Virus record (IMG/VR): IMGVR_UViG_3300012344_000001
Span: 43,955 to 107,954 of that record
Strand: one strand, 5' to 3'
DNA: 64,000 nt
From: a virus
Lineage: Duplodnaviria > Caudoviricetes
This document shows, in pieces, positions 29,991 through 62,905 of this stretch. Numbering within the stretch: the first letter of the stretch is position 1; every line of letters starts with the position of its first letter. The notes beneath the pieces are model-generated. The model saw only the letters and a program-made list of their open reading frames with translations, was not told where the DNA came from and did no database searches. The position numbers were made by a program, and so were the translations under genes.

Positions 29991-31538
29991 TTACTGACAG
30001 TTATCGAACACGGCGTTGTTTTTGATTTCGCGACCGCAACACAGGCAATACAGCTTGCCACCCGCAGTCACCTGCACCTTGGACATATCCGTGTTGGCGG
30101 GCGAAATCAGCGCCTTCTTGATTTCGGGATAGGAACGCTTCAAGGATTCCCACTCGTGGATGTCGCTATAGTGATGGTTCGTCACGTCGGCATACACGGG
30201 CTTGTTCCCGAAATACTTTTCGCCGTGAATCCGCTTCAAGTCACCATAGTTATCCCAATCGGTCACGCCGATATAAGAACCGATGGTGTTTTCCAGCAGT
30301 TCACGCGCTTTTTCAGACACGACTTCGATGTCCTTGTGCTGGGGATATTCGCGACCAAACAGGAACGTGCAGTTCATACGGTCGCCGTTGATAATCTGGC
30401 GCCAAGACTTGGAATTGCCCTCAAAGGCGTTCTTGCCGAAGTTATATTCGTCGCGTTCGCCATCCTGTCGCGCCACGATGCGGTCGTACAGATACGTCTT
30501 GCCGTTGTCGCGATACGCAATCAGCGCGTTCGGGTCCCAAATCCACTGGACAGTTCCATAGTTCATAGAACCGTACAATTTCTGACAGGTGCTCCACCCA
30601 TGCATATTCGTGCCGGAGGTCATGAAGTCGTACGGGTCGATGCTAACGCATACAAACCCCTTAATCATGCGATTCTGCATGACCTTGCTGAAGTCGATGT
30701 CAAATTCCTTGTTCTGGAAAAGCTGGCTAAAGAACTTGGAAATCTTCATGCCCTTCTTGTAGACGTCGGGCGCATAGGTCTTGTAGAAATCGCACTTCGG
30801 CATTTCGTTCTTCGTGAAGTAGTCGATGCCGTCGCGACCACCCGCTTCGACAACCTTGTCGATAGACGCGGCATACTGGGGCCACTTCTTGTACATATCA
30901 TACACCATGGGGCGCATTTCGTTCGCGTCCATCGTATATTCGATGGGCGTGCGGATGATAAGCTGATGACCAAATGCGACATAGTAGTCGTACTTCGCTT
31001 CTGCCCACTTACGAAGAAGAATGTCGATTGCTTCGTCGGTCGGCTTCTTGCCGTTACCAACAGCGACGGAACAAAGCTTGCGGAAGCGGTCGCGGTCGAC
31101 CTTATCCATCATTTCCTTGATAATATCTTCGTCCTGCACGTCGTGGTGGATGCTATAATTCTTCATTGCGGGCTTCGCGCTTTCGACTTCGGGTTCCTTG
31201 TCGCGGAAAGAAAGCACAGAAAATGGAACGGCAACGTCGAAACCAGTCTTGAAGTCGCCGGTGAAACCGTTCGCGCGAACCTGTTCCTGACGTTCGGCGG
31301 GAATTTCGTCGTTGATTGTCACGTCAACGCTTTCGCCAGAATCCATCTGCCAACGCATATAATCGTCGGCAAGAAGGCAAAGCCCCTTAGCCCAAAGAAG
31401 TTCCTTGGGATATTCCTTGTCCGCGTCGAAACGATTGATGATAAGAACATCGCCGTCATGAATGCCGCGAAGATGGGGATATTTCGAAAAATTCCAAGCA
31501 TCTTCCTTGCATTCAACCTTTTTGACAATCTCTGCCAT
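29991..31538 (-). CDS. Unknown phage protein, paralog of 28809..29879
   Basis: KGMKISK, SIDPYDFMTS..WSTC, C-terminal CLCCG. Confidence 0.7.
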   Translation of the reverse strand: MAEIVKKVECKEDAWNFSKYPHLRGIHDGDVLIINRFDADKEYPKELLWAKGLCLLADDYMRWQMDSGESVDVTINDEIPAERQEQVRANGFTGDFKTGFDVAVPFSVLSFRDKEPEVESAKPAMKNYSIHHDVQDEDIIKEMMDKVDRDRFRKLCSVAVGNGKKPTDEAIDILLRKWAEAKYDYYVAFGHQLIIRTPIEYTMDANEMRPMVYDMYKKWPQYAASIDKVVEAGGRDGIDYFTKNEMPKCDFYKTYAPDVYKKGMKISKFFSQLFQNKEFDIDFSKVMQNRMIKGFVCVSIDPYDFMTSGTNMHGWSTCQKLYGSMNYGTVQWIWDPNALIAYRDNGKTYLYDRIVARQDGERDEYNFGKNAFEGNSKSWRQIINGDRMNCTFLFGREYPQHKDIEVVSEKARELLENTIGSYIGVTDWDNYGDLKRIHGEKYFGNKPVYADVTNHHYSDIHEWESLKRSYPEIKKALISPANTDMSKVQVTAGGKLYCLCCGREIKNNAVFDNCQ

Positions 31539-31644
31539 GTTAAGACCTCCGTTATATATTTTTTGTTTGCTTGCCTATGCTATTATAATAGCACTATTTT
31601 TCGTTTTTGTCAACACTTATAGAAAAAGGCGTATTTCTACGCCT

Positions 31645-31720
31645 TGGTGACGCACAGAAGGAATTGCAACTTCTATCTCCGCCGTGAGAAGGCGGCATCC
31701 TTACTTTAGACGAGTGCGCC
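31645..31720 (-). tRNA. tRNA-Glu (CUC) with encoded CCA and an atypical T loop
   Basis: Acceptor GGCGCAC/GTGCGTC, anticodon arm CCGCC-TTCTCAC-GGCGG, T stem AGAAG/CTTCT, ACCA end. Confidence 0.8.
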
Positions 31721-31768
31721 ATGTGTAGGGAAGGGACTTTCGTCCCTTCCCGCTGGGGATTGCGATGA

Positions 31769-32161
31769 TTACTGATACATCGCGATGGTGGCACGGGCGG
31801 CGGCAGCAGCGGCTTCAGCATCCGCAAGTGCCTTCTTAGCCGCAGTCACGCGGGGGTCTTCAGCGGTGTAGATGGTGACAAGCGTGGCACAGGCAGGTCT
31901 GCCGGTATAGACCATCTTGATACCCTCCGAAATCGCATTAAGGACGGGGGTGGCATCGAAGATTGCGATGCTCTGAATGGGGTCGTGATTCTTGCCAATC
32001 GTAAGGTCGTCGTCGTTGACGCGCAGATACGTCCCCTTGGACGTGTAAACCGCACGATTGCCCTCGGAATCGGACAAAAGAACATAAGTGTTACCACGCT
32101 TGCTCTTCACGATAGCACCAGGCAGAACATCCTTCCAGCTCTTCACAACATAATCAGTCAT
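31769..32161 (-). CDS. Hypothetical protein
   Basis: 130 aa, SD AAAGGAG, own promoter. Confidence 0.7.
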   Translation of the reverse strand: MTDYVVKSWKDVLPGAIVKSKRGNTYVLLSDSEGNRAVYTSKGTYLRVNDDDLTIGKNHDPIQSIAIFDATPVLNAISEGIKMVYTGRPACATLVTIYTAEDPRVTAAKKALADAEAAAAAARATIAMYQ

Positions 32162-32309
32162 TTTTCATTTCTCCTTTAATATTAAAGATTTTTATGTTCA
32201 CAGGCGACCAACCTGTTCACACCGTTTCCTGTTATGCTATTATATTAGCACACATTTTGGTTTTTTGTCAAGGTCGTGCGGCGGTTAAACCGCACGACCT
32301 GTAATTTCC

Positions 32310-32382
32310 TCGCCCATATCGTAGTCGAAACGATGTCTCCAGATTGAAGGTCTGGCGGCTTAGACCGCTTGCCTAATGGGCG
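32310..32382 (-). tRNA. tRNA-Glu (UUC) with C at position 33, no encoded CCA
   Basis: Acceptor CGCCCAT/ATGGGCG, anticodon arm CCAGA-CCTTCAA-TCTGG, T arm ATCGT-TTCGACT-ACGAT; own promoter at about 32398-32429. Confidence 0.8.
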
Positions 32383-32431
32383 ATTTCCAACTGTGCTATT
32401 ATAATAACACACGCTTTAGATTTTGTCAAGT

Positions 32432-32686
32432 GCTTACCGCTATCCCACTTTCACGGTTTGCAACAGCTAATCCTTGCCGCCTTGAAATGACGGTTTCGCC
32501 GGTAGCCCTAACGCATAGCCAATCCACGTTGTTGTGGCGGCGTTGCAGATAGGCGATTCTACCATGTTAATAATATTCGCACGGATTTCAATGGGCGCTG
32601 AACCCTACCTTGGCGGACTGTTTTACAGCACGCTACTTGTCGGGTTGGTGGCGAGGTTATTTTAGGTGTCACCCGCCATTCCACCA
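32432..32686 (-). ncRNA. Unknown structured RNA, copy 1
   Basis: 45-nt core 32641-32685 shared with 37948-37992, with compensatory changes; 3' boundary uncertain. Confidence 0.6.
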
Positions 32687-32688
32687 TG

Positions 32689-32857
32689 CGGCTGATGTGC
32701 TACTACGCCAAATTATCCACGGCAATCATAGGCGGTCAAGAAATATCATTCTGCATGATTGCAACAGCAAATATTTCCCACGGCACAAAGACCGTCATGA
32801 CTCGCCCCGCGACAAATTCCTTAGACGATGGCTGCTTCTAAGCCTACGTTTCAACCG
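32689..32857 (-). ncRNA. 23S rRNA GTPase-associated-centre (L11-binding) mimic with about 105-nt insertion
   Basis: GTAGGCTTAGAAGCAGCCATC..TAAGGA..[insert]..GGCGTAGTAGCAC, closed by helix CGGTTGA/TCAGCCG; promoter directly upstream at about 32865-32894. Confidence 0.75.
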
Positions 32858-32890
32858 TTGTGATTATAATATCACACCGTTTTGCTTTTG

Positions 32891-33868
32891 TCAATAGTTG
32901 TCGCCGTAATCCGGCTGGAAGTTCCAAGAAGTCGACCAAACCTTTTCGCCGTTATATTCAATCTGGATGAAATCATCTTTGACGTCCAGCACAACAAACG
33001 AACGATAAGCGGGCAAATATACGCCTGAAATTGGACTATTGTAATTCGGCTTCTTGTAGATGGCGCTGGAACCGTACTTCGTGAATACTTCATCGCCCTT
33101 GATGTAGAACTTCGACCAAAAGTGCGAACCCTTATTGCCATAGTAATTCTGCGTGGGCTTTGGCTTCGCTTCACAGTACGGATAGATAATGTCATCCTTC
33201 GTGTCGGCGATAATCTTCACCACCTTGTCGATGGTGCCCTGCAATTCGGCATAGCGAACATATTCTTCGGGATGGTGTTCGTTATAATAGCCGCAGGACA
33301 GATTGACGCTTGCAAGGTCAAACACGGGCGACAGATTGCAGATATCCGTGAACGAACCCTGCGCCTCGACAAAGCCGTGTTCATCAATGAACTTCTTGAA
33401 CTGCTTGTTGTCGCACTTATAATAGACCGAATCCTGCTTGCCGCGACGGTCAATCTGAATCATGTAGCCTACACCAGCAACGCGACCCTTGATTTCCTGC
33501 GCCGCCCGCTTCGTGGATGCACCGCCGACTTCTTCGTCCGTGCTGAAAAACAGATAAGGACGCTTCCCGCTTTCTTCTGTTGCCTTCAACACCGCCAGAA
33601 CGGCATAGACGCCACAGCGGTCGTCACCGCCAATGCCCATGGGCGAACTTACCTTTTCGCCATCATCGACAATCTTGGTCGGCTGACGCTTATGCACCGT
33701 ATCAAGATGCGCACAAAGCATCGTCGGGCAGTTGCCGCTGAAAAACAGATAGTCGCCACCATTGACCGTGTTTGCCAGACCATAATATTCGCTTAACTGC
33801 TGATAAAGCCACGCAAGCAAATCTTCCTTGACGGGCAGGCAAAGTTTCTTGAAGCCTTCTTTGTTCAT
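32891..33868 (-). CDS. M20/M28-type zinc peptidase with C-terminal SH3-like domain
   Basis: AHLDTVH, GGDDRCG, DEEVG, IDRRG, SFTD, GYYNEH. Confidence 0.8.
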   Translation of the reverse strand: MNKEGFKKLCLPVKEDLLAWLYQQLSEYYGLANTVNGGDYLFFSGNCPTMLCAHLDTVHKRQPTKIVDDGEKVSSPMGIGGDDRCGVYAVLAVLKATEESGKRPYLFFSTDEEVGGASTKRAAQEIKGRVAGVGYMIQIDRRGKQDSVYYKCDNKQFKKFIDEHGFVEAQGSFTDICNLSPVFDLASVNLSCGYYNEHHPEEYVRYAELQGTIDKVVKIIADTKDDIIYPYCEAKPKPTQNYYGNKGSHFWSKFYIKGDEVFTKYGSSAIYKKPNYNSPISGVYLPAYRSFVVLDVKDDFIQIEYNGEKVWSTSWNFQPDYGDNY

Positions 33869-34047
33869 TTAATGCACCCCTTCTTGTAGCCGCCAATAAT
33901 GCCTTCGATTGACGACGCTTCAAAAATGTAGATTTTCCTTGTGATATCTTTCAGGTCGCGCTTGGTTTTCAGCAGTTTGCCGCCGTTCGCCAGCAGGTAT
34001 TCACACATTCGCGGACTGTGGACAATTTTTTCATTCTTAAAAGCCAA
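33865..34047 (-). CDS. Small hypothetical protein
   Basis: Coupled ORF; similar pattern to 17847..18011. Confidence 0.5.
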   Translation of the reverse strand: MAFKNEKIVHSPRMCEYLLANGGKLLKTKRDLKDITRKIYIFEASSIEGIIGGYKKGCIK

Positions 34048-34063
34048 TACACGTCACAACCCT

Positions 34064-34639
34064 TCACACAACGTCGCGCCAGCCAATACGGTCGGTCAAC
34101 AGCGGCGTCATCACATAGCTTCCACGTTCGCGGGCGTTGTAGCCGTCCTTGTAAGACCAATCCTTGATGCGTTCGTCGATATAGTCCTTTGCCGCGTCCA
34201 GTTCTTCCTTCTTGAACTCCGGCATCACCATGATGCGAACATCTTCAAAGGTCAGGTCGCCAACAACAATGTCTGCCGACATATTGCCGCCCAGCGTGAA
34301 ATTCATACAAACGTAATCTTCCACGCCAAGGAAGGACTTGTCGAACAGTTCGATGTCATCCTTGGAAAAATCAAGCTTCGTGCCATAACCCGTGCGACAA
34401 AGACCGCCGTATTCCGCGCCCAGCTTGCGAAGTTCTGCGTCCGCAATAATACAGTGCATTGTGTTGCAGTTCTGTTCGGGAATATAGATTTCCTTTACGC
34501 GATATGTGCTACCGTCCTTGTTGGTTTTAAGGAAAATAGCCGCCATTCGCGCCGAACTGGCAACCGCATACTTACGCAGTTCGTTATATACCGCCTGTGA
34601 CATCTTAATGTCGGGTTCTGTTCCGCGATAACTAATCAT
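34064..34639 (-). CDS. Possible degenerate JAB/MPN-fold protein
   Basis: YRVKEIYIPEQ and FSKDD resemble JAB, but the HxH ligands are absent. Confidence 0.4.
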   Translation of the reverse strand: MISYRGTEPDIKMSQAVYNELRKYAVASSARMAAIFLKTNKDGSTYRVKEIYIPEQNCNTMHCIIADAELRKLGAEYGGLCRTGYGTKLDFSKDDIELFDKSFLGVEDYVCMNFTLGGNMSADIVVGDLTFEDVRIMVMPEFKKEELDAAKDYIDERIKDWSYKDGYNARERGSYVMTPLLTDRIGWRDVV

Positions 34640-34863
34640 GCCAGCACCTCCCTGTTAATCGGAACAACGGTCATGATTTGCACGTCGTCGCGCACCACAA
34701 TCGTTCTTCGCAAGCCCTTGGCTTCAAGCCTTGCGTCTGCATCCGCCCTTGCCGCATCAACCTGTTCGCGGGTAGCGTAAAAGCTACAAGTGTCACAGTT
34801 GATGTCGCCAGAAAGAACGGAACATCCGCCCATGCCGTTGCAACCAAAGCAATCACGTTTCAT
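34636..34863 (-). CDS. Cys-rich hypothetical protein
   Basis: DCFGC..CSVL..CDTCSFYAT. Confidence 0.6.
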   Translation of the reverse strand: MKRDCFGCNGMGGCSVLSGDINCDTCSFYATREQVDAARADADARLEAKGLRRTIVVRDDVQIMTVVPINREVLA

Positions 34864-34977
34864 TTTTCGTCCTCCTATTCATGCGGTTTAACCGCTATGA
34901 TACTATAATAGCACACCGTTTAGATTTTGTCAAGCGTTTTTGTATCCGCCAAAGAATGTCTTTAACTAAAATGGTAA

Positions 34978-35104
34978 TGACATAATCCACCGCCTCTTGG
35001 TGTTTGTATTTCTACAATTTCCACATCATTGATTTTGCTTGCACTTGCGAAGTCTTACAAATCTCCGTGGACATTCAGGACGTACCCCGCCCCAAGATAT
35101 TGCT
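34978..35104 (-). ncRNA. Probable omega/reRNA scaffold and right end of tnpB-1
   Basis: Non-coding tract after tnpB ending ..GATTATGTCA; boundary inferred. Confidence 0.45.
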
Positions 35105-36217
35105 TTACGCTAACATCTGTAATCCTTCTTGCAGGATGTTTAACGCGGCATTTAAGTCGCGCACATGATGCACGCCGCAACAAGGACAATCCCATTCGCG
35201 AACAGACAAATCCTTTGTTTTCGGATTCTTCCAACCGCAGAAAGAACACAACTGACTTGATGGGAAATATCTATCAACAATATGAAGATTCTTTCCATAC
35301 CACGCACACTTATATTCTAATTGCCTGCGGATTTCATAGAATGAAACTTCCTGTGCCGCCTTTGCGCCAAAATGATTCTTTTTCATTTCAGATACCTTCA
35401 AATCTTCTATGCAGATGTCATCATATTTGCGCACAATGTCCGTCGTCAGCTTGTTGATGTAGTCTTTTCGCTGGTTGGCGACGTGTTCCATAGCCCTTGC
35501 AAGTTTAATTCGCGCCTTTTTCCAGTTTTCGCTACCGTTTGTTTTTCGCGATAGTTCTTTCTGTAGACGTGTAATCTTCTTTTGTGATTGCTTTAGGAAC
35601 TTAGGATTAGGAACAACTGTTCCATCTGAAAACGTCATTAGATTATCTGCTGAATTTAAGTCGATACCGATAGATTTTCCGGTTTTAGGTAGATGTTTTT
35701 CGGGGACATCAGTACAACAAACAGATATATAATATTTGTCTGCTGGTGTTTTAATGACCGTGACAGACAGGATTCTGCCTTCTACTTTTTTGCTGACGCA
35801 ACATTTCACCATACCTATTTTAAGCAGCTGAACACAGTCATCAAACAGGTGAACGCCAGTTCCAAGGACTCGATACGACTGCATTGTCTTTTTTGATTTG
35901 AAACGCGGATAGCCAACGCTTTGACCTTTTTTGATTCCACGAAAGAAATTAGAATAAGCACAATCTAAATCGCGCAATGATTGTTGCAAACCGACGGCGC
36001 TAACTTCGCGCAAATATGCAAATTCTTCCGTCTTTTTAAGACTTGTCAAATCTTTCATGCAGTCAAATCCGCCTATTCGTTTCTTTTCGGTTTCCCATGC
36101 AGTTTTGCGCATTTCAAGATAATGGTTATAAACTTTACGACAACAGCCGAAAGTTCTTTTCATGTGTTCTTTTTGTGCATCATTCGGATAAATGCGGAAC
36201 TTATATGATTTTTCCGT
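35105..36217 (-). CDS. tnpB: TnpB (IS200/IS605 family); RuvC triad intact, start codon apparently ACG
   Basis: (T)EKSYKFRIYP, GYPRFKSKK, GIDL, IEDL, PSSQLCSFCG, CPCCG, RDLNAA; no tnpA. Confidence 0.9.
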   Translation of the reverse strand, partial: TEKSYKFRIYPNDAQKEHMKRTFGCCRKVYNHYLEMRKTAWETEKKRIGGFDCMKDLTSLKKTEEFAYLREVSAVGLQQSLRDLDCAYSNFFRGIKKGQSVGYPRFKSKKTMQSYRVLGTGVHLFDDCVQLLKIGMVKCCVSKKVEGRILSVTVIKTPADKYYISVCCTDVPEKHLPKTGKSIGIDLNSADNLMTFSDGTVVPNPKFLKQSQKKITRLQKELSRKTNGSENWKKARIKLARAMEHVANQRKDYINKLTTDIVRKYDDICIEDLKVSEMKKNHFGAKAAQEVSFYEIRRQLEYKCAWYGKNLHIVDRYFPSSQLCSFCGWKNPKTKDLSVREWDCPCCGVHHVRDLNAALNILQEGLQMLA

Positions 36218-36223
36218 TATCTA

Positions 36224-36772
36224 TCATCCCTTCATAATTCCACCGAAAAATGTATTATCTATTATGGCATACTGGGTATAATTATAAAAATTATGATGCC
36301 TTTGAGAACGAAAATAACAAACCCAGTCTGGAATTGTGCATCCATTGTAAATAATATAGTCCACGGCCTCATATTGCATTTCATTGGGGGTCACGTTCCC
36401 CAGCTTATTGCCCAAATCAAACTGCGGGACACCGCCGCTATTCTGTTTAATTACTTCTTCAATGCTGTTAGGAAATTCGTCAGACTTCACGCGATTCATC
36501 ACAACGCTTACGACAGCGCGCTGACATTCCATAGATTCGCCACGCGCTTCCGTCCATAATAGACGCGCCAGCATTTCACGTTCGGTTGACGTTACGAAGA
36601 AATATGGCGTCGGTTCCACATAGACTTCCACATAGTCGGTGTGGTGAAACAGTTCTGTCCGCACGATAATTTCGACTGGAACTTCTTCTTCTGGTGCCAA
36701 AAGCGGCATAATTGTAGAAATAAACGTCCAGCAAACACAAATCCAAAGGAACAGCTTTTTGATGTCTTTCAT
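36224..36772 (-). CDS. Cell wall hydrolase (SleB/Hydrolase_2)
   Basis: LARLLWTEARGE, VVMNRV, FPNSIEEVIKQ; N-terminal TM. Confidence 0.8.
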   Translation of the reverse strand: MKDIKKLFLWICVCWTFISTIMPLLAPEEEVPVEIIVRTELFHHTDYVEVYVEPTPYFFVTSTEREMLARLLWTEARGESMECQRAVVSVVMNRVKSDEFPNSIEEVIKQNSGGVPQFDLGNKLGNVTPNEMQYEAVDYIIYNGCTIPDWVCYFRSQRHHNFYNYTQYAIIDNTFFGGIMKG

Positions 36773-36788
36773 ATTGTACCCCTTTTGC

Positions 36789-36998
36789 TTAGATGATTTT
36801 TGCGCGGGTTTGCACCGGTTCAAAGAAGACGGTTTCAACGTCCCATTCGTTCCCAGCATATCGCCCTTCGATGATGCGCACTTCAATATAGCCCTGTTTT
36901 AGTCTTGAAGTGCTTGTCACCATGCACTTCACATGATAATCTGTTTGGGTATACTGTTCGCTCGTATTACACCAAACAATTTGACCGACTTTGAACAC
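36789..36998 (-). CDS. SH3-like small protein, tail AKII
   Basis: FKVGQIVWC..YHVKC; paralog of 39265 and 50440. Confidence 0.7.
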   Translation of the reverse strand: MFKVGQIVWCNTSEQYTQTDYHVKCMVTSTSRLKQGYIEVRIIEGRYAGNEWDVETVFFEPVQTRAKII

Positions 36999-37001
36999 CG
37001 A

Positions 37002-37219
37002 CTACACCACCTTTGCCTTTAGATAAATCTGCCTTTCAAAACACGACACGCGAATATCGGTCAGAACATCGCTGCCGCTTTTTGCGACAAGCTTTTTGTC
37101 GACAATCGCATAGTCGCGACGGACGTCGGCATATTTTTCGTCTTTACAGCAACGACGCGATAAACGTTCGTGTCGTATACCAGCAAATCACCAATGCGCG
37201 GCTTATATCCGTTAGTCAT
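37002..37219 (-). pseudogene. Frameshifted SH3-like gene, tail AKVV
   Basis: MTNGYKPRIGDLLVYDTNVYRVVAVK, then a 1-nt shift near 37135-37145 to DEKYADV...LKAKVV*. Confidence 0.6.
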
Positions 37220-37506
37220 GCGACCACCCTTCCCAAAATTTGGTCGTGGACAATGCGACCCTTCTTTTCGCCATTCTTGCCGATGGAATACCAGCGTCCA
37301 TCAATCGCCAGAATGTCATAGATTCCCCACGCGCCAGTCTTCGTGAACACCTTGTCGCCAACATGGAACTGCGTGGTGTTCTTGACGGGTGCGACGTTGT
37401 ATCGCTGACCACCGACCTTGATTACGCCATATTCGCCAAGACGTAACTTGGCGGCGGCGAAATCGTTTGGAACAGATTCAAAAGATGCAAAAAATTTTTT
37501 ACCCAT
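37216..37506 (-). CDS. Hypothetical protein with C-terminal SH3-like region
   Basis: FHVGDKVF; ends GRVVA. Confidence 0.6.
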   Translation of the reverse strand: MGKKFFASFESVPNDFAAAKLRLGEYGVIKVGGQRYNVAPVKNTTQFHVGDKVFTKTGAWGIYDILAIDGRWYSIGKNGEKKGRIVHDQILGRVVA

Positions 37507-37744
37507 ATTTATTCTCCATCATATTCAAAGAAAAAGACTGGTTCGCCACCCATTGACACAACCCAATCAGGGTTTTCGTTCTGTATTCTGTGGCAGAATT
37601 TTTCCGCCTGCTTGCGAAACAAAAAATAGACGTGTGAAAATGTGCCATTTTCTGCCGACAATTCGATGTCCCATATTAGAATGTGTAAATCTGCAATAAA
37701 CGCTTTGATTCTTTTCATACCGACCACCACAAAAAATTAGAATC

Positions 37745-37995
37745 GGCAGGGGTTTAATCGCTATACGGCTTGACGCCCCATCAAACATCCGTATCCGCTA
37801 TTGCCGTTCGCAACAATGCCCGTCCATGTAGTAATTCGACGGGATGATTTCGACACTTTGTATACCGAACGAAACCTTTGCCTGTTGCCGCGAAATATCG
37901 GTTTTGGCTTAACGCGCCCCGTGGAACACGCCAGTGTCACGCCCTTTCGGGCTGGTAGTCGGGTTATTTTAGGTGTCACCGACTATTCCACCGAA
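37745..37995 (-). ncRNA. Unknown structured RNA, copy 2
   Basis: Starts right after promoter TTGACA-17 nt-TATTAT (about 38004-38033); core shared with copy 1; several hairpins. Confidence 0.6.
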
Positions 37996-38010
37996 CATGA
38001 TATTATAATA

Positions 38011-38238
38011 TCACACAACTTGCGCTTTGTCAAGTCCCTTTGCAAGTTCAAAGAAGCAGGTGTGGCTACCATAATCAAACCAATAATGGTCTGAAAATTC
38101 GCACCAGCGGACATAGAACGACTGAAAGTCGTGTTCTTTGCACCAGTCGCCAATCATATCAAGGGCTTCGTTTACGTTGTCAGCGTTTCCAACGAACGTG
38201 CGGTCGCCTTTTCTGTCAAGCCATTCAAGACGCATCAA
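38011..38238 (-). CDS. Hypothetical protein, tail AQVV
   Basis: YVRW..FDYGSHTCFF; tail overlaps a promoter. Confidence 0.6.
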   Translation of the reverse strand: MMRLEWLDRKGDRTFVGNADNVNEALDMIGDWCKEHDFQSFYVRWCEFSDHYWFDYGSHTCFFELAKGLDKAQVV

Positions 38239-38486
38239 TCGTCACCTTCCATCCGCGTCAGTTCGTAGATACTGTTGCGTGTCACGATGCGAATATCGCC
38301 TTCGCACAGATAGTCTACTTCCTGAATTGTGGACGTGTGGACACCACCACCATCGACAGGGCGAATATAGCCACGTTCGCCAACGTTGATATTTTCAAGG
38401 TCGGTTACAACCTTGCCGTTGACCAATTCGTGGACATAGGTTAATTCGCGACCTTCGCGGGGATAGACATTGCAATAATACTTCAC
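38235..38486 (-). CDS. Hypothetical protein
   Basis: HTSTIQEV...TRNSIYEL; probable GTG start. Confidence 0.55.
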   Translation of the reverse strand: MKYYCNVYPREGRELTYVHELVNGKVVTDLENINVGERGYIRPVDGGGVHTSTIQEVDYLCEGDIRIVTRNSIYELTRMEGDD

Positions 38487-38797
38487 AGAATCTTCGCCAC
38501 CTTTCTTTCGGGGATGTAAAATGTTCCGATTGTACGCCAATTTTCATGTTCGGATGGATACCAGTCAAGGTCACTATCCCAGCCGTTATATTCACCGTCT
38601 TGGTTAAACCAAAGGTAGTTGCCGTGCCAATACGCTTTGCCGATTTTTCTAAGAAAAGATACGGCGTCATTGTTTGATTCGACAAACACAACAACTTCTG
38701 AAAAATCTATAAACGGAATCGTTTTTATGTCGGCTATGCTATCAAGTTTTTGCCAGTTCAACTTAACGCCACCAATTTCTTTGCGAAGATTCATCAT
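38483..38797 (-). CDS. Hypothetical protein, tail AKIL
   Basis: Coupled ORF. Confidence 0.65.
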   Translation of the reverse strand: MMNLRKEIGGVKLNWQKLDSIADIKTIPFIDFSEVVVFVESNNDAVSFLRKIGKAYWHGNYLWFNQDGEYNGWDSDLDWYPSEHENWRTIGTFYIPERKVAKIL

Positions 38798-46047: not shown

Positions 46048-46076
46048 ATTATATCATGCGTTTTAACTTTTGTCAA
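46048..46076 (-). promoter_or_regulatory. Sigma-A promoter overlapping the dnaE stop codon
   Basis: TTGACA-17 nt-TATAAT; one of more than 20 near-consensus minus-strand promoters in the window. Confidence 0.8.
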
Positions 46077-49000
46077 GTGAACTTGGAAGTGACGATATCG
46101 TATTCTACAAGGCAATCGCAGTACGTTCCGGTTTGTTCAAAGCCGCTTTCAGTTTTTCGCCAGTTCGGTCGCTTTTGAAACTTCTTGCAATACAAGATGT
46201 CATCTGCCTTAAACTTGTGTTTGCCATAGAATTTTTTGTCCGCTTTGCACTCTATGGATTTTCCGGTCGCGATACAATACAGCGTAACGCGCGGCGTAAA
46301 TTTGGTATCTGCCGCCAACACATAGCAGAAGTTTTTCGGAAGTTCGGGCTGTGTGAACGACACATAGCCAAGATATTCGCGGTCGGCTTGTATGCGTTCT
46401 GCCAGCGGCAAATATTCGTCGGGCAAAGACGCTTCAAACGCTTTCAGTTCAGCGATTCGCGCTTCTTTCGTCTTGGCAACATACGTTTTCTTGTAGCGGT
46501 CGAAGAATTTGTCAACGATTGCCAACAGCTTCTTGTTTTTGCCAAATTCGCTAAAGAAGCCGATGGTGGTCAGCACCTTGATTTGGCGGGCGTCAACCGT
46601 GGTATTTTCGCGAAGATAGACAAGAAGGTCGGCGAACGTGGGAAAATCCATGAAGCGGATAGAATAAAGCTGGTCGGCGCAATCGGCAGAAATATATTTG
46701 ATGGAACCAATTCCTTTGTATATAGTTCTTGTGGATTCATCAAATGAATATTCCAGCTTCGCGGAACGAAATCTTCCCGGCTTTAGATTTATGCCAAAAT
46801 ATTTCAGTTCCTTCGTTAGCCTTGATGTCTTTTCTTGGTTTCCGTCGTAAATATTAAATACGACAGTGTAGTAATGAAGCGGATAGTTTTTCTTCAAATA
46901 CGCTCCATACAGACAATCAAGCGCCGTCGCGGCACCGTGGGGACTGTTAAACCCATAGTTCATTTGTGCCTGCATATCTGACCACATTTTATCAAATCCG
47001 TCGTCTGAACCAGTGTTTTTCTTCCAGTTTTCGCGTAGTCCTTGTTCGAGTTTTTTGAAATCTTCCGGCTTGATTTTTTTCTTTGAAATCTTCTTTATTA
47101 GACCAATAGATTCTGCCGGCGTTACGCCAAGAAACTCGAACATTGACATCAGGGATTCTTGGAAGATTACTCTGTGTCCAGTTGGTTCAAGAACTTTGTC
47201 TAACGCTTCTGAACCGGTGGTATGTGGCTTTCTCGCAATAAAATCATCTCGTTGTGGCGCAAAATTTGGTCGAATTGCACCAACAAACATCGCCAGTTCT
47301 TCCATGGAACGCGGCTTATATTTTCGCAACAATGCTGTCGCCCAATCTTCGCCAACTTGGTTCAAGGTGCAGGTAATTCCATCGTCAAAAAGTTTCCATG
47401 TATCTTCGTCGATATTTTCTAAAAGACGTTTTACGGGCATAATTGGCTTGCCGATTGATTTGAAAACTTTTGAAATAATGTCCCAAACGCTAACGATAAG
47501 ATAATCATTTTTAAGATATTTCCACGAATCGGCTTCAGAAGATGTTATCATTGCGCACAAGAAATCACCAAGTTTTACAACACCAACCTCTTCTTCGATA
47601 TCGCAATTCATCAAAAGATGGGCGCATGGATGCACAGACGCGCTTACAATCGTACCGACATACTTTTGCGATTCACTAATATAAGCGCCCCATTTTTTGT
47701 CGTCGCGATATGCATCAATATCCTTAGACACTTCATTTACTTCGCCATATGGTTCACCAGCAGAACGACACACATTCCTAAACGCTTCACTTTCTCCCAT
47801 AGTACCATACGCCAACATTGGGAAACATCCGTCTTCGCCAAGAAGTTCGCGACTTGCCTTCACAAAAGGTTCTTGACCGACAACGTTAGCATCGAAATCT
47901 GGAAGCGCGTGGTTTTCCAGCAGTCGTGCGGTCGACATAAACCTTTCGCCGTACATCGGAAGCGTTGTTCTAAGACGATCAATTTGTGTCAAGCCAAGGA
48001 TTTTATTCAGAATGAACGCACCACACGAATTATGAACAACAATATTATTTATTGTGTAACTATGACAACCATCTACTTCCATGTCGTATACCGTGGTCGT
48101 CATGTTCTTGTGGATTTCGACAGATGTAACCGGCAAATACCAATATTCATCATCTTCTACTAATTTATTTATATTTCGATGATAACCGCCATTTAAGGTT
48201 CTTAACTTATAAGATTCGGCGTTTTTATACCCACGAACATCGTCGTATGCAAGCCGCACATCTAAAGATACAGGAGAAGAACCGTCTACAATATCATGAA
48301 GCGTTTTGTAGGTTCCACAAAGCGATAGCGACGTAGTATCGTAGCAGACCTTATTATATTCTTTCCCACTGCTACCATCGGCTTTCATCATTCCAATATA
48401 AATCCATTTAAGAAGTTCTTTCTTTTGATTCAACAAGTCCTTATTAAATGTTTTTTGTTTCCCTTTTTTCGACTTGAAGAATTCGGTTGAAAACCACGCG
48501 TTCAATATTCCGCTAAACATTGTCATTTGAATAAGGTTTTTGTTTTTAGCATAATTGTAATATATTGGAATTCCTATTCTTTGCGAAATCTTCTCAAACA
48601 CATACCTATTGAATCCATTTTTTGTTGTGTTATTTATGGCAAGTCCTATACCGTTGCTTCTTTGTGTCCATCCGTCTGCATACATAAGTCCGACAAAGGC
48701 ATTCCACATATAGTCCATAGAAATATACCTTGGTATACGTCTTCTTATAAATCCATGTTTCTTACAGTATTTAGAATAGTCTTCCATTGTCTTAAATGGA
48801 ATATTGTCAAACATATCAGCCAATGATTTTTTCGTTTTGCCGTTCGTTCCGATTTTTCCATTCACAACACTTAATGCAAATGCCTTGCTTGTAATACCAG
48901 CACGACCCAACTCGCTTGGGCTATATGGATATTTCGCTGGGGTTGGAACAACTTCGTAAATATAATTTTCATCGAATTCATATCCGAAAACATTATATTT

Positions 49001-50434
49001 ATTTAGGTCATATACGATTTCTTCATCGTATTCGTGTTTTAATTTTGGACAACAAAGCAAGCTTCCAACAGACAGTTCGTCTGCACAAACGTATTTTCTA
49101 CACCCATCTTTATAGACAAGTATTTTGTGGTCGGTGGTACAAATATTTTTATATTTTTTGTAACTACTTCCTTGGCACCTATATGTAAATTCAATCATGT
49201 CTTCGCATATATCATACGACATGGTTTTATTTACCCTGTGCCACATTCTATCTTCCGAAAGAACTTCGTCCCCAACAACCACAGAGTCTATTGTCTTCAT
49301 TGCGTTTGGTGTTCTTATAAGCGCATCTTTTGTAAAACACCCGCGGCCCGTGCGAGTCAAGACGCCACCATATTTGTTTATAGCCAAGTCGAACAGCTTG
49401 TCGTTGAGAAGAAAATAATCAGACGTGTGGACTTCGCTTGTTTCTTCAATAACCTGCATTTCCTTTCGACATTCGGCGGCATACTTTTTTCTTTCTTCTG
49501 GCGTCACTTCATCTTCTTCCATGACCTTGTTAAATTTTTTATTTACAATATCCTTCAGAATAACGATTTTTTCTTCTTCCGTCTTGCCTGCGTATATGGT
49601 TGGCATCTTGATTGTTCTGTCAATGTTGATGTTTTCGCAGGCGTCGAACGCAAGCGTGTTATTTATTGCAGAAACAATCTGCGGTCTTGTCAACACGCCC
49701 TGTTTTTCAAATCGCGAATACATAACATCAATAGTGGGATAATCAAGAATAAACGAATCTTCTTCGCCGTAATTTATGCCTTTGCCTTTTAGAAATTCAA
49801 GCCGTTCCTTGGCTTGTTCTGGATAAATATAATGACTGTCATTTGCTGCAATTATATCCAACCCATGTTCTTTTGCGAAGGAAATCGCCTTCTTGTTTAT
49901 TTCAATCTGATGTTCTTCGTTATGGTTTTGGACTTCAAGGAAAATATTTTTGCCAAACTTTTCCACCAATGGAAGAAGAATTTGATTGGTGGCGTCTTCG
50001 TCGCGAAGCAACCCCGCCATACATGCCGAAGTAATAAACAGTTCGTCATCATCAAAATTATCCGTTAAATCAGATAAAAACAGGCGCGGCTTATAATAAT
50101 ACCCGTCCCTGTTTGCGTGGCTACTTGCTTTATTAAGTTTCTTTCGTGCCACATTTGTCTTGGGAATTAAGATGATATGATAATTTCTATTGTCTTTTTC
50201 AAGCGGGTTTGGTACTATATAGCCTTCCATACCGAATTTACAGTCAAGCCCATACTTGTCACAGACTTCACGCGCTTCGAAGATATCACCACCGCTTCCA
50301 TGCTCGGTGCTAAATATATTTTTTTCACCAAGTTCAATGGCGCGCTTGGCATAATCTTCGATTTTAACATTAACATCTGGTGTAAAAATATTTGAAACGT
50401 GTGTATGTTTGTGATAATTGTTATACCTATCCAA
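46073..50434 (-). CDS. dnaE: DNA polymerase III alpha subunit with intein
   Basis: PHP motifs HKHT, TEHG, NDSHY; GRG|S; PDFD; KNDYL; YGFNSPH. Confidence 0.92.
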   Translation of the reverse strand: MDRYNNYHKHTHVSNIFTPDVNVKIEDYAKRAIELGEKNIFSTEHGSGGDIFEAREVCDKYGLDCKFGMEGYIVPNPLEKDNRNYHIILIPKTNVARKKLNKASSHANRDGYYYKPRLFLSDLTDNFDDDELFITSACMAGLLRDEDATNQILLPLVEKFGKNIFLEVQNHNEEHQIEINKKAISFAKEHGLDIIAANDSHYIYPEQAKERLEFLKGKGINYGEEDSFILDYPTIDVMYSRFEKQGVLTRPQIVSAINNTLAFDACENINIDRTIKMPTIYAGKTEEEKIVILKDIVNKKFNKVMEEDEVTPEERKKYAAECRKEMQVIEETSEVHTSDYFLLNDKLFDLAINKYGGVLTRTGRGCFTKDALIRTPNAMKTIDSVVVGDEVLSEDRMWHRVNKTMSYDICEDMIEFTYRCQGSSYKKYKNICTTDHKILVYKDGCRKYVCADELSVGSLLCCPKLKHEYDEEIVYDLNKYNVFGYEFDENYIYEVVPTPAKYPYSPSELGRAGITSKAFALSVVNGKIGTNGKTKKSLADMFDNIPFKTMEDYSKYCKKHGFIRRRIPRYISMDYMWNAFVGLMYADGWTQRSNGIGLAINNTTKNGFNRYVFEKISQRIGIPIYYNYAKNKNLIQMTMFSGILNAWFSTEFFKSKKGKQKTFNKDLLNQKKELLKWIYIGMMKADGSSGKEYNKVCYDTTSLSLCGTYKTLHDIVDGSSPVSLDVRLAYDDVRGYKNAESYKLRTLNGGYHRNINKLVEDDEYWYLPVTSVEIHKNMTTTVYDMEVDGCHSYTINNIVVHNSCGAFILNKILGLTQIDRLRTTLPMYGERFMSTARLLENHALPDFDANVVGQEPFVKASRELLGEDGCFPMLAYGTMGESEAFRNVCRSAGEPYGEVNEVSKDIDAYRDDKKWGAYISESQKYVGTIVSASVHPCAHLLMNCDIEEEVGVVKLGDFLCAMITSSEADSWKYLKNDYLIVSVWDIISKVFKSIGKPIMPVKRLLENIDEDTWKLFDDGITCTLNQVGEDWATALLRKYKPRSMEELAMFVGAIRPNFAPQRDDFIARKPHTTGSEALDKVLEPTGHRVIFQESLMSMFEFLGVTPAESIGLIKKISKKKIKPEDFKKLEQGLRENWKKNTGSDDGFDKMWSDMQAQMNYGFNSPHGAATALDCLYGAYLKKNYPLHYYTVVFNIYDGNQEKTSRLTKELKYFGINLKPGRFRSAKLEYSFDESTRTIYKGIGSIKYISADCADQLYSIRFMDFPTFADLLVYLRENTTVDARQIKVLTTIGFFSEFGKNKKLLAIVDKFFDRYKKTYVAKTKEARIAELKAFEASLPDEYLPLAERIQADREYLGYVSFTQPELPKNFCYVLAADTKFTPRVTLYCIATGKSIECKADKKFYGKHKFKADDILYCKKFQKRPNWRKTESGFEQTGTYCDCLVEYDIVTSKFT
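48029..49339 (-). mobile_element. Intein with LAGLIDADG homing endonuclease in DnaE (437 aa)
   Basis: GRG|CFTKDA...TTDH...VGLMYADG...IGMMKADG...VVHN|SCG. Confidence 0.9.
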
Positions 50435-59132: not shown

Positions 59133-59593
59133 TAGATATACTTCCTTCTGAATTTTGACGTAATATCTTCTTTCGCACTTCCTTTTTCCATAACATACAT
59201 TCGCTGATTGGTTGTTGGTTTGTCCAGCCCGCCAAATTGTTCGTCATAACGTCCGATTTTAACGTAGTCAAATGCGCCAACACAATCTTTAAGGTCGTCC
59301 AAGCTGTCATAACCGCTATAAAGGCACGTCTTATAGCCTACGCACATTTTCGCCAGATGAACAAGTTCCTGCTGGTCTTGGTCGCCACCCATAAAGCAGA
59401 CACAAGTAATCGCGTCTGCGTATTGGCGGATTGCGTCCGCAATATCCGCAGAAAGGTCGCGACCGACATCTTCCCACAGATATTGCGAATGGCAACCCTT
59501 GCAATGGTGGGTGCAACCACTAATGTTAAACACCAACGAGACTTCGTTTGGAACTTCTTGGAATGCGATAGTATAGCCGGTGTATTTCAACAT
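59132..59593 (-). CDS. nrdG: Anaerobic RNR activase (radical SAM)
   Basis: CTHHCKGCHS, GGD, KIGRY, TNQR. Confidence 0.88.
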   Translation of the reverse strand: MLKYTGYTIAFQEVPNEVSLVFNISGCTHHCKGCHSQYLWEDVGRDLSADIADAIRQYADAITCVCFMGGDQDQQELVHLAKMCVGYKTCLYSGYDSLDDLKDCVGAFDYVKIGRYDEQFGGLDKPTTNQRMYVMEKGSAKEDITSKFRRKYI

Positions 59594-62500
59594 CAGATAT
59601 TCACCTGACTATCATAGAAACGCTTGGCGGCTTCGCGCTGACGCGCTTCGCTGAAACGGGAAATGCGTTTGAGATATCCAATCACCCTTGTCGCATAATC
59701 AAGATTTTCACTTCCACAAGCAGGACATCTATCAAGCATATGTTTACTAATATGTCCACAATCGTTACAGACGGTATTCGGGATATTGAATGTAAAATAA
59801 GAACATCCGGTTTTGATGGCATAATCAAGAATTCGACGATACTGTTCTTTTGTAAGGTGTTCCGCCAAATTTACGTGGTTCGCCGCCCCGCCGTCAAGAT
59901 ATTTTGTCGACTTCTTACCCTGAAGGATAAACTTGTCGGCTACGTTACAAGATTCATCTTCGACAAGATAGAAGTAACTGTTATAGCAATCGCGTGGGAC
60001 GAAATAGCCATCAACTTTATCCCACTTGGCATTTTTAACGGCGAGGTTTTCTGAAGGCGCCATTTCACAATTAAACATCACTTCATCCGTCCTGTCTCGA
60101 CGGTTGATTTCGTAAATCGGCTTCAGAACAGATTCAAGATATTCAAAAAACTTGTCGTTTGGTGAAATGTCGATTCCAAGGAACTGTGCTCCTTCAACGA
60201 CGCCATTGATGCTCGCCGTAAGGAATTGTTTTTCCATAGAAATAAAGCCGGCATCATAGACAGGAAGAAGCCTTGCATTTAGATTATCTTTAACAATTTC
60301 ATTATATGCAATAAGATATTTATGAACCTTTTCCACTTGTTCCGCAACTACATCAGAAATATTGCGCCTATTTTTCATGGCGTTTTGCACCAATCTATTG
60401 ATATTCATGGTAATTACACCCTTACTTCCAGTGGAAACGCCGCCCGCACCAAGCGTATAGCTAAACGTATTATCCTGCAACTCGTTCCGAAGACGACAGC
60501 ACGATGCGAGGCTGTCTACACTGTCACTCGTGTAAGTAAAAAAGCTGTGTCCCCTTGCATACATTTCAGCGGTAAAATCCGCAGAATTTTCATCAACATA
60601 TTTCGTTCCATCACTAAGAAGATTCATTGTTTCGACCGGGAACGTAATCACAGCCTTCCTGCGTTCTTCATTAAGCCAATTCATAAACTCACGCTGGAGC
60701 CATTCCAAACTTTCCCAGCAGGGGGTACTTCCGTCTGGAAAAATAAATGTTTCAAAAAGACCCTTGAAGTACGGTTCGTCAAAGTAAGCGATGTTCCAGA
60801 ACGCGGCTTGAAAACCTCTTGCGGCGGCAGGCTGGTTAATTGAATAAACAACCTGTGACGCTTTATCATGAACAACGTCACGAATTGTTCTTTGGCGTTT
60901 TACAGACGGCATTGTGACAATTTCGTCTGCGCGAAGATAATAGTCGTCACCATAATCCTTACGAAGAAAATAATCCATATACATAAGGAATTCAGGCGTC
61001 GCAACAGCGCCAGCGAACTGTGAAGATACAGCAAAAACAAGATTGATAAACGCACCGCAAAAACTATCAAGATTGGTTGGCGCCGTAGAAATTCCACCAA
61101 TTTTTGTCATTCCGTCAAACAAGAACGGGTACATAGTAATGCTAACGCAGTTGTGAACCCAGAATCCATTACAAACGAAGCTATGCGATTCGGTTGTAAT
61201 ATCATAGATATAGTCGTTCATGTCCAGATAAGGCTCGTTATCAATCGGTTCGACATTGGTAATTGTTTGCCATTCATCAAACGAATTCTTCTGTCCTTTT
61301 TCAATACGACGCGCCTTTTTACTTTTTTCCGCCATACCAAACGTAAAGGGTTCGCCCTTTTCTCTAAATCTTACGCCAAAAAGCTGGTACTTTTGCTGAA
61401 TTTTTTCATTACAACCAAATTTTGTCTGCTGAACGCCGCATCCAGAAGTAATTCCAAACGCATTTACAACCGTAGCAATCTGCATTGTTAGCGTGCGGGA
61501 TGAAGTCCTAATAGAATAGCACCCACCACCATCAATACTTCCATCACTATCAATAAGCCCTTCAATGATTCCCTTCGCAAAGTCTTCATTGTAATCAAAA
61601 ATATTTTCAGGCATAGACTTATTCATAGCCAGATGTCCAATATTAAAAACATTTTTTAACAGGACAAACATGAAAGGATTTGGCGTAATCAACTGATACT
61701 TTTCATCAGAAATGTTATACTGGATTCTTGCGGCACCATTCAAATGCGTATAAATAATATTTCCAATTTTCTTTAACACATCGTCTTTAGCTTGTGTTAC
61801 GCAAATATCAGACGAATATAAGGAAAAGTTTCCGTCGCCAATAAAAAACCCTACAAGATATCCAAAATTTCTGTCAAGCTTTACTTTTTTTGGCACAGCA
61901 TACCAAGTATTTTTTGTTGACGTCTGCATAACAAAACAATCATCATATTCGATGAAGTTCATGTGTCCAGCTTTGAAAACTTCGCGCGAATCAATTTCGG
62001 TCTGACCACCGAACTTCATTTTAGATGAACACCTATATTGTTTATAACCCAAGGATTCAGATGCGGGGATTGTTTTGTCGATATCGTCTTCAACAATAAT
62101 CGGGTGATTATCTGTCACAATGATGTCGTTGCTAAATGCGGTTTTTACTCTAACAAGGTCGCGATGGCGTTTTTTTCTAATTAGTCGTTGTATCTTTGTA
62201 AACCCGTCCCTATCTTCGACAAACATATCTACCGGATACTTTGCCCAAACATCTTTATCTTCATCGAGAAGTTCTTCGTCGTCTTCACAAAGGCTATATA
62301 GGCGCCACATTGGAATTGTATACGTTTTCCCCACATATCTGACGTTTACGATTTCGTGCGCCCCATAAGTGTACGGTGCGATATTTGTTTCGTCGTGTTT
62401 ATAAATCTCATGACTTTCTAACTGACGAATATATTCCCTTGCCATATCTTCGCCATACATCTGCGTCAGCTTGTCAATCATCAACAGACGGTTCGCGCCA

Positions 62501-62670: not shown

Positions 62671-62680
62671 TCCACCAGCC

Positions 62681-62905
62681 TTAGATATGTTTTTCCACCC
62701 ACTCTTTCGCCTGCAAAAAGTTATAATACGCCCCATCAATCATTACAATCGGTAGTTCGTCTGTATTATGTTCCTTTGCAACGTCCTTAACCTGTTGGTT
62801 GTCGTGGATGACTGTCACCATCGCATCTTTTACGTCTTGCATTTTGCGTTCAGCAAAAAAGCAATGGGGGCATCCTGTTCGCCCATAAATTTTTACATCA
62901 TACAT
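62681..62905 (-). CDS. Glutaredoxin / NrdH-like protein
   Basis: GCPHC, LPIVMIDG. Confidence 0.8.
   Translation of the reverse strand: MYDVKIYGRTGCPHCFFAERKMQDVKDAMVTVIHDNQQVKDVAKEHNTDELPIVMIDGAYYNFLQAKEWVEKHI

Follow-up and report, generated by a model that had tools for sequence, protein, structure and literature searches.

Features of a free-standing mimic of the ribosomal GTPase-associated center in a family of phage RNAs

Why would a phage carry a copy of one small domain of 23S rRNA? The question is raised by a locus in an uncultured 108-kb phage, represented by a complete 107,954-bp IMG/VR virus record with direct terminal repeats (IMGVR_UViG_3300012344_000001). The window analyzed here is a 64-kb stretch that forms the right-hand part of this genome. 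A first-pass annotation of the window had pointed to a minus-strand RNA at 32689–32857 that keeps the loop sequences of helices 43 and 44 (H43 and H44) of the GTPase-associated center (GAC), the L11-binding domain of 23S rRNA, inside a rewritten closing helix, and had proposed that it is a selected decoy. The best explanation of the sequence is that the window encodes a small, stable RNA predicted to fold on its own into the GAC tertiary structure, made up of the top of H42, H43 and H44. The features of the locus are as follows, with RNA positions numbered after E. coli 23S rRNA.

32866–32894, minus strand: promoter, TTGACA plus extended -10 (11/12 match, TG present)
32689–32857, minus strand: putative GAC-mimic RNA unit, from first to last base of the closing helix, 169 nt (sequence; R1 match)
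32851–32857, minus strand: closing helix 5' strand, H42-like, CGGUUGA, pairing with 32695–32689; A32851 is position 1055
32825–32850, minus strand: A1056 and the H43 mimic (1057–1081), including the 1067 loop (sequence, LSU model match)
32816–32824, minus strand: C1082-U-A-A-G1086 turn and H44 5' strand, G1087 A1088 A1089 U1090 (family conservation)
32713–32815, minus strand: insert between 1090 and 1091, 103 nt (alignment to R1)
32709–32712, minus strand: UUUG linker from the insert to the H44 hairpin (family alignment)
32697–32708, minus strand: H44 hairpin GCGUAGUAGCAC, positions 1091–1102; A1095 is 32704 and A1101 is 32698
32689–32696, minus strand: A1103 and closing helix 3' strand UCAGCCG, 32695–32689 (sequence)
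32309–32383, minus strand: tRNA-Glu(UUC), context outside the RNA unit, 306 nt downstream, with its own promoter-box copy at 32429–32401

The ends of the unit pair as the first-pass annotation had proposed: CGGUUGA (32857–32851) and UCAGCCG (32695–32689) form a closing helix of 7 bp, including one U·G, that ends in A1055–U1104, as it does in 11 of 84 family members. Next come 1056·1103, which is A·A, and the A–U pair 1057:1081. The H43 stretch GGCUUAGAAGCAGCCAUC (32844–32827) is identical to E. coli 23S 1062–1079 in 18 of 18 letters, and the GUAnnA loop of H44 is kept, so that the loops are indeed preserved inside a rewritten helix. Two pairs, 1058:1080 and 1082:1086, are C–G here as against U–A in E. 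coli, and both differences are compensatory. H43 and H44 are not contiguous as in 23S, where GAGU runs straight into GCGUAAUAGCUCAC; here they are split by the 103-nt insert and the UUUG linker.

The simplest answer would be that the locus is captured, decaying host 23S rDNA, an assembly artifact, or the cis-acting leader of a ribosomal-protein gene, and that no free RNA has a function at all. The Rfam LSU model (RF02541) does match locally, at 32849–32804 (model positions 1098–1143; 19–24 bits against a cut-off of 50; E-value 1.2e-3 in the local search and 9.1e-7 genome-wide), and real host 23S is found in some phage records, such as that of Paenibacillus phage Pd_22F. However, the genome is complete, with terminal repeats, and the LSU model finds no other LSU sequence in its 107,954 bp beyond this one 46-nt match, which agrees with the earlier remark that no other rRNA sequence was seen. 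The 3' part of the RNA reads GCACAU, unlike the real 23S at another locus (L237). Nor does the leader version fare better: the RNA has its own promoter, and downstream lie non-coding sequence and tRNA-Glu, with no ribosomal-protein gene there. Apart from that tRNA (32383–32309), no Rfam family exceeds its threshold around the RNA.

A second line of evidence comes from other phages. The exact H43 18-mer is found in at least 117 IMG/VR viral contigs, almost none of which continue as 23S; they read GGAnGUnGGCUUAGAAGCAGCCAUCnnnUAAnGAGU, a variable stretch, and then UUUG-GCGUAnnAGC-A-CAC. This design, GAGU followed by an insert, UUUG and GCGUAAUAGC-A-C, is also present in cultured phages. The 3' motif of the family, UUUGGCGUAAUAGCACAC, is absent from real 23S and occurs in at least 119 viral contigs; in a scan with this motif, the H43 variants recovered are not dictated by the 18-mer. 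At least 147 distinct RNAs of 98–439 nt (median 210) were collected from IMG/VR phage contigs. Among 185,579 species-representative bacterial genomes, the 3' motif appears in 20, mostly on MAG contigs, and the full RNA in 15.

Cultured phages were reached with a 47-nt core query; a search of cultured-phage DNA with 32300–32950 as the query gave no matches. The RNA is present, unannotated, in Pseudomonas phage pf16, where it sits between tRNA-Asn and tRNA-Pro, and in Xanthomonas phage XacN1, Cronobacter phage GAP32 and Aeromonas phage 4_4572. The core also matches other Pseudomonas phages and jumbo phages of Erwinia, Serratia, Pectobacterium, Yersinia and Vibrio, which suggests that these are carriers as well.

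Three signatures set the phage RNAs apart from rRNA. The linker is UUUG in 56 of 72 members and UUUA in another 9 of the 72, and it is missing in real 23S. Position 1101 is an A in all 72, pairing with U1090, where 23S has U. Finally, the RNAs carry the insert. The RNA in the window displays the whole set, with an insert between U1090 and G1091 on a paired base, UUUG at 32712–32709 and A1101 at 32698. That A1101, the linker and the insert are common to at least 147 RNAs points to a phage-specific family rather than to captured rRNA. No description of such a family was found in Rfam 15 or in the searchable literature, and the RNA belongs to a large phage RNA family for which we found no public name. 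Paenibacillus phage Pd_22F was considered as an insert-less minimal member and rejected, as its record contains a true 23S rRNA gene; it was kept as a control.

The first-pass annotation had proposed an Infernal and Rfam search and a look for covariation across phage homologs, whose absence would have counted against its reading; covariation proves to be strong. A covariance model, R1, was derived from an alignment (A2) of 39 non-redundant members from other phages, with the RNA of the window excluded. Where the LSU model gives 19–24 bits, R1 matches the window with 84.6 bits (E-value 2.6e-24) at 32861–32685, covering model positions 1–168 of 168, and this is its single match in the entire genome, the window included. 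Cultured members score 85–100 bits, and the genuine 23S in the Pd_22F record scores 59.5 bits. In A2, 92.5% of the cells that should pair do so, compared to 68.1% in shuffles, none of which (0 of 500) reaches the observed value, and 18 of the 25 pairs of the GAC-type structure have changed on both sides. The covariation score reaches 0.621, whereas shuffles give 0.150 and slid partners 0.10–0.18, and RNAalifold, unaided, predicts the same helices.

The pattern of change follows the structure closely. In the closing helix (1047–1055/1104–1112), which ends at G/A1055–C/U1104 in the family, all 9 of 9 pairs covary, and the sequence is unconserved beyond the junction. The junction itself retains 1056·1103 as G·A or A·A in 74 of 84 members, non-Watson–Crick as in rRNA. 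The pair 1057:1081 is formed in 70 of 72 members and 1058:1080 in 71 of 72, the latter with all four Watson–Crick types, and 1082:1086 alternates between U–A and C–G (paired in 62 of 72). The basal stem of the insert, formed in the window by UUGU (32815–32812) and AUAA (32716–32713), is paired at its three positions in 71, 71 and 64 of 72 members, with covariation. In the set collected with the 3' motif, 1065:1073 switches from U–A to A–U in one member.

Within this changing framework, a set of nucleotides is frozen. G1059, U1060, U1083, A1084, A1085 and A1088 are invariant in 72 of 72 members, as are G1091, C1092, G1093, U1094, A1098, G1099 and C1100 on the H44 side, and G1071 and C1072 are unchanged in all H43 variants seen in the 3'-motif set. 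The tips are looser. A1067 is conserved at about 85% and A1095 at about 93% in the family; in the 3'-motif set, about 9 of 60 RNAs have G, C or U at 1067, and positions 1096 and 1097 vary (1096 is A in 56 and G in 15 of 72 members, and G in the window).

Family-wide covariation and the family-specific signatures thus support the view that the RNA is a selected, free-standing GAC mimic with a rewritten closing helix. This part of the earlier proposal stands. For uL10, as one of the stalk proteins that the RNA might sequester, the outlook is poorer: since the H42-like helix has no conserved sequence beyond the junction and 9 of 9 of its pairs covary freely, uL10 binding is unlikely to be a conserved function. 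The possibility of a decayed rRNA fragment, which the first-pass annotation had raised against its own reading, is at odds with the family signatures and with the lack of other rRNA in the genome. Together with the preservation of the RNA in a close relative, the signatures and covariation across at least 147 RNAs leave rDNA capture, artifact or leader a highly improbable explanation; it is already contradicted by the genome search, the signatures, the covariation and the R1 match.

The close relative, L213, has a neighboring peptidase that is 94% identical and keeps the RNA with few changes, and those that fall in the proposed stems all keep pairing. In the closing helix, the U·G has become U–A; at the base of the insert, a G·U has become A–U; and in an insert hairpin, CUGU/GCAG has become CUAU/AUAG. 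The first-pass annotation had described about 105 nt able to form a long stem. The length is close to the 103 nt found, while the long stem is a prediction, for which only the three compensatory changes in L213 speak; the minimum free energy fold of the RNA alone is no better than that of shuffles (z = -1.0) and does not draw H43 and H44. Downstream of the peptidase in a second relative, L214, the RNA is absent. In a 499-nt contig of a relative, 121 other letters replace 32601–32862.

The insert is the most variable part of the RNA. Its position between 1090 and 1091 is constant in nearly every member, at lengths of 24 to about 350 nt, and blastn sorts 150 distinct inserts into 81 clusters, including 67 singletons. 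The insert in the window matches that of L213 alone and is thus lineage-specific. Some motifs recur (UGAUGU, GGUAAG, CACCCC and GGAUAA), none of them universally, and near its 3' end the window's insert has UAUGAU...GGAUAA, which is common to one insert class. A copy of the sarcin–ricin loop was considered as a general feature of the inserts and rejected: AGUAC is present in 20 of 84 inserts, in varied contexts, and not in that of the window.

This variability raises the idea that the GAC fold is a chassis, a nuclease-resistant and tRNA-sized cap bound by abundant uL11, while the insert does the work, which would differ between phages; it might act, for example, as antisense RNA or offer a site to a ligand or to a further protein. 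The constant insertion point with its wide range of lengths, the many clusters with some recurring motifs and the compensatory changes that keep the insert stems in L213 would all fit such an arrangement. However, any stable fold would do as a cap, and an exact copy of an rRNA center with frozen tertiary nucleotides points instead to the natural ligands of that center. In addition, the smallest members (L118 and L188) have inserts of about 24 nt, and the insert motifs are not universal. On balance, we consider the chassis unlikely.

How might the RNA be made? A promoter of its own had been read from the sequence, and it proves to be near-consensus: TTGACA (32894–32889), a 17-nt spacer and TG-n-TATTAT (32874–32866), on the minus strand, match at 11 of 12 positions with an extended -10. 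It belongs to six copies of one 45-nt box within 31500–38500 (family D1). Transcription would start near 32859, about 7 nt past the -10 element and 2 nt ahead of the closing helix. Since no terminator was found downstream of the RNA and a conserved non-coding stretch runs from it to the promoter of tRNA-Glu, the primary transcript may extend beyond 169 nt. This tRNA, on the same strand, is the sole sure tRNA of the genome. Two wastewater "RNA-Seq" runs contain short contigs, restricted to 32817–32854, with several letters different and unlike flanks; these stem from other DNA or RNA, most probably real 23S rRNA or other family members.

In the family at large, the setting is dominated by tRNA genes, of which 853 lie on the strand of the RNA and 1 on the opposite strand. 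A tRNA is found within 30 nt in 59 of 147 RNAs, with the closing helix beginning 0–9 nt past the upstream tRNA and stopping 1–20 nt ahead of the downstream one. Because the closing helices lie flush with the adjoining tRNAs, the unit occupies a slot in the array like a tRNA; this is its place in most phages, where the enzymes of tRNA processing probably excise it. The fetched flanks of 40 of the 147 members hold no tRNA, and the RNA in the window has the one, 306 nt downstream with its own promoter. As to a link to amber suppression or stop-codon recoding, a tRNA(CUA) lies near 4 of 60 loci and is absent from this genome. Protein genes show no regular association: when 2,896 ORFs from 209 loci were clustered, no family was present in more than 15 loci, and the top clusters were HNH endonucleases and proteins of unknown function.

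What, then, might a free GAC be for? The frozen positions of the family are known as those from which the 58-nt rRNA domain builds its compact tertiary structure. All nucleotides of the uL11-binding fold are present in the window: the U1060–A1088 pair, the 1067 stem, and the triples of 1071/1072 with 1091–1092/1099–1100. Because the frozen nucleotides are the uL11-binding core and the tips that face factors and drugs are looser, uL11 of the host is the best candidate for the ligand. It is favored further because uL11 is universal, which matches the very wide host range of the family. Neither this genome nor any of 20 carrier phages, including 11 with a completeness of at least 90%, has a gene for uL11, so the partner must be that of the host. 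The most likely reading of the RNA's function, and one toward which the sequence evidence leads us to lean, is therefore an off-ribosome decoy that binds uL11.

In this mechanism, the free RNA would bind host uL11 through the C-terminal domain of the protein, for which precisely this fold is the recognition site, and act as an off-ribosome decoy or sponge. If the RNA is abundant, the occupancy of uL11 on ribosomes would fall, or newly made uL11 would be trapped. Loss of uL11 would in turn be expected to alter the activation of RelA in the stringent response, RF1-dependent termination and the binding of thiopeptides; which of these downstream effects would help the phage is a matter of speculation. 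Van Dyke, Xu and Murgola in 2002 reportedly found that limited uL11 shifts RF1/RF2-dependent termination. The activation of RelA needs uL11 (PMC7058999). The C-terminal domain of uL11 hydrogen-bonds the U1060–A1088 pair and elsewhere reads the shape of the backbone in the minor groove of the 1067 stem, and bacterial L11 still accepts the corresponding yeast site (PMC2175356).

Several points argue against a decoy of this kind. Most uL11 is bound to ribosomes, and a sponge would have to be very abundant or rely on exchange of the protein. A plain sponge needs no insert, yet nearly all members have one, and it is structured within lineages. The fold energy of the single sequence is no better than that of shuffles. 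Moreover, A1067 and A1095 are mostly kept although the C-terminal domain of uL11 needs neither, which hints at a further ligand, for which the N-terminal domain of uL11, a factor or an enzyme are candidates.

A different idea would dispense with uL11: the RNA might directly bind, and thereby titrate, RelA, a release factor or one of the translational GTPases. On the ribosome, the GAC contacts EF-G, EF-Tu, RelA and release factors, and A1067 and A1095 are mostly kept. These factors, however, also need the sarcin–ricin loop, the stalk and other ribosome surfaces, the inserts provide no general sarcin–ricin-like element (AGUAC in 20 of 84), and it is the factor-facing bases that are less conserved. 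Direct factor binding thus seems to us very unlikely.

An alternative with more in its favor, although still a doubtful one, is that the RNA, as a decoy or a dead-end substrate, soaks up an agent that would attack or read the GAC on the ribosome, and so spares the ribosomes that the phage needs. Candidates for this agent comprise toxins or defense effectors, such as a Tre23-like ADP-ribosyltransferase or an RNase, as well as rRNA-modifying enzymes and thiopeptide antibiotics. The exposed bases A1067 and A1095 are mostly kept, and the RNA adjoins phage tRNAs, which often stand in for tRNAs destroyed by defense nucleases. Tre23 ADP-ribosylates H44 of 23S rRNA at 1095–1098 and thereby blocks EF-G (PMC8661411), RNA-directed ADP-ribosyltransferases also act in anti-phage defense (CmdT, cited in PMC13768812), and phage RNA decoys exist in the form of pseudo-ToxI (PMC3475682). 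However, 1096 and 1097 vary freely inside the mapped target of Tre23, A1067 is altered in about 15% of members, and extra substrate does little to block a catalytic enzyme. Because the family spans phages of very different hosts, its ligand is expected to be universal, and uL11 suits this expectation better than any single toxin. We also know of no defense system directed at the GAC.

Returning to the uL11 decoy, a wider picture can be drawn, although only tentatively: a portable copy of the GAC that takes uL11 off host ribosomes, or keeps it off, may be a widespread and so far unrecognized phage strategy that blinds RelA. With RelA blinded, no stringent response would follow when defense nucleases or the phage take-over leave tRNAs uncharged, and the copy might also retune RF1/RF2-dependent termination. 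If true, this would be the first known viral RNA that reprograms the composition of the ribosome through rRNA mimicry.

The broader interest of the family lies in its distribution. A complete, self-closed copy of a highly conserved ribosome center is carried by many unrelated large phages (at least 147 RNAs), of which the cultured ones infect Pseudomonas, Xanthomonas, Cronobacter and Aeromonas, and many are uncultured. Conservation this wide implies that the host ligand is universal and that the phage truly benefits. Should uL11 be this ligand, the RNA would represent a new viral route to altered ribosome composition, with the stringent response silenced; if it is an effector directed at the GAC, a class of defense not yet described would be indicated. 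The question lends itself to direct testing, as the carriers include cultured phages with tractable hosts. For structural work, the RNA is also useful as a natural, stabilized GAC fold that tolerates an insertion. To our knowledge, few phage small RNAs have known roles, and rRNA mimicry is known only from the cis-acting leaders of cellular ribosomal-protein operons.

The closest known relative in structure is the GAC of bacterial 23S itself, for which E. coli 1051–1108 is the minimal fragment that binds uL11 and thiostrepton. The phage RNA shares its three-helix junction, the GUAnnA loop of H44, the nucleotides of the tertiary fold and the non-Watson–Crick 1056·1103. Unlike the 23S GAC, it is free-standing, with an arbitrary closing helix, an insert at 1090/1091 followed by UUUG, and a U1090–A1101 pair (23S has U1101), and A1067, 1096 and 1097 are variable. 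Moreover, phages encode it, either within tRNA arrays or, as here, under a separate promoter. In this tRNA-cluster setting, the family resembles the species 1 and 2 RNAs of phage T4 (rnaC/rnaD), small stable RNAs of unassigned function that are co-transcribed with phage tRNAs and freed by tRNA processing. The resemblance is one of setting, and the core matches in cultured phages include no T4-type record.

The rRNA-mimicking leaders of ribosomal-protein operons, such as the rplJ/L10 leader (Rfam L10_leader) and the L1-binding leader of rplKA, are likewise off-ribosome copies of a ribosomal-protein site, although we know of no leader that binds uL11. They act in cis in their own mRNA, consist of a minimal motif and are cellular, whereas the phage RNA is viral, comprises the complete domain, adjoins no ribosomal-protein gene and matches no Rfam family above threshold. 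Such leaders are reviewed in PMC10931766 and, cited there, in Meyer 2018. A function as a trans-acting titrator that imitates a ligand, as proposed here, is akin to that of CsrB/RsmZ, which titrate CsrA, of 6S RNA, which titrates sigma-70 RNA polymerase, and of pseudo-ToxI, a case of RNA mimicry used by a phage (PMC3475682). What sets the phage RNA apart from these sponge RNAs is its template, a domain of rRNA, and its putative target, which would be either a ribosomal protein or a factor directed at the ribosome. Both rRNA mimicry and decoy RNAs were thus known before; what would be new in the phage family is their union in an RNA that is trans-acting, viral and domain-complete.

Six copies of a 45-nt promoter box, the sequence of which on the minus strand is TTGACAAAA...TGTGnTATTATAAT, are found in the window, and several of them precede non-coding units. 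This arrangement suggests a group of small RNAs with strong transcription. The promoter boxes and the candidate non-coding features are as follows (window coordinates):

31575-31619, 32232-32276, 32391-32435, 32856-32900, 34895-34939 and 37995-38039: promoter box
31649-31719 (-): weak tRNA-like match, downstream of tRNA-Glu (28.4 bits, just below the Rfam cut-off of 29)
32440-32685 (-): ORF-poor stretch of ~250 nt between the GAC mimic (the predicted RNA resembling the 23S rRNA GTPase-associated centre) and the tRNA-Glu promoter
32640-32685 (-): 46-nt motif, copy 1
37947-37992 (-): 46-nt motif, copy 2

The two copies of the 46-nt motif are 83% identical to each other and share an identical core, GGUGACACCUAAAAUAACC, while the flanking stem is GGCG/CGCC in one copy and AGUC/GACU in the other. 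Copy 1 starts 4 nt past the GAC mimic, and copy 2 is located directly behind the promoter box at 38039-37995, where it heads a second non-coding unit. The ORF-poor stretch contains no credible ORF, and no terminator was found within it downstream of the GAC mimic. Apart from one replaced patch, it is kept in L213, a close relative. The stretch may represent a second RNA that is co-transcribed with the GAC mimic.

A 499-nt metagenome contig from a relative (run X20, record 12) matches both flanks of positions 32601-32862, but the GAC mimic and the 46-nt motif are replaced there by 121 other letters. This relative either lacks both elements or carries a diverged, shorter version.

At one locus (L044:5138-5700; IMGVR_UViG_3300042197_004918), a single tRNA array includes two GAC-mimic RNAs ~320 nt apart, with a tRNA-Pro between them. 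Three other loci (L136, L147 and L176) have a variant architecture in which the H43 end, ...GCAGCCAUG, is followed by GCUGGAAGGCUG... that replaces the UAA turn, a sequence layout that looks as if there were a second insertion at 1079/1080. In the Paenibacillus phage Pd_22F record (MZ092003.1), labelled "complete phage genome", a genuine 23S rRNA gene of bacterial type (2617 bits) spans 82477-85512, where the annotation gives small hypothetical proteins; this gene is probably host DNA within the assembly.

Several protein-coding genes elsewhere in the window were also noted:

3375-5906 (-): 843-aa protein matching the eukaryote-type RNA-dependent RNA polymerase fold (PF05183, 4.6e-17)
35105-36163 (-): TnpB/IS605 OrfB-type gene (OrfB_IS605, 1e-27; Cas12f1-like TNB, 4e-23)
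46073-50434 (-): DNA polymerase III alpha-like gene, interrupted by an intein
59593-62739 (-): anaerobic ribonucleotide reductase gene (NrdD), split by an intein that contains a LAGLIDADG endonuclease

The TnpB-type gene resides within the phage genome, ~2.2 kb upstream of the GAC mimic. The PF05183-matching protein is possibly a single-subunit RNA polymerase of the YonO/crAss-like kind.
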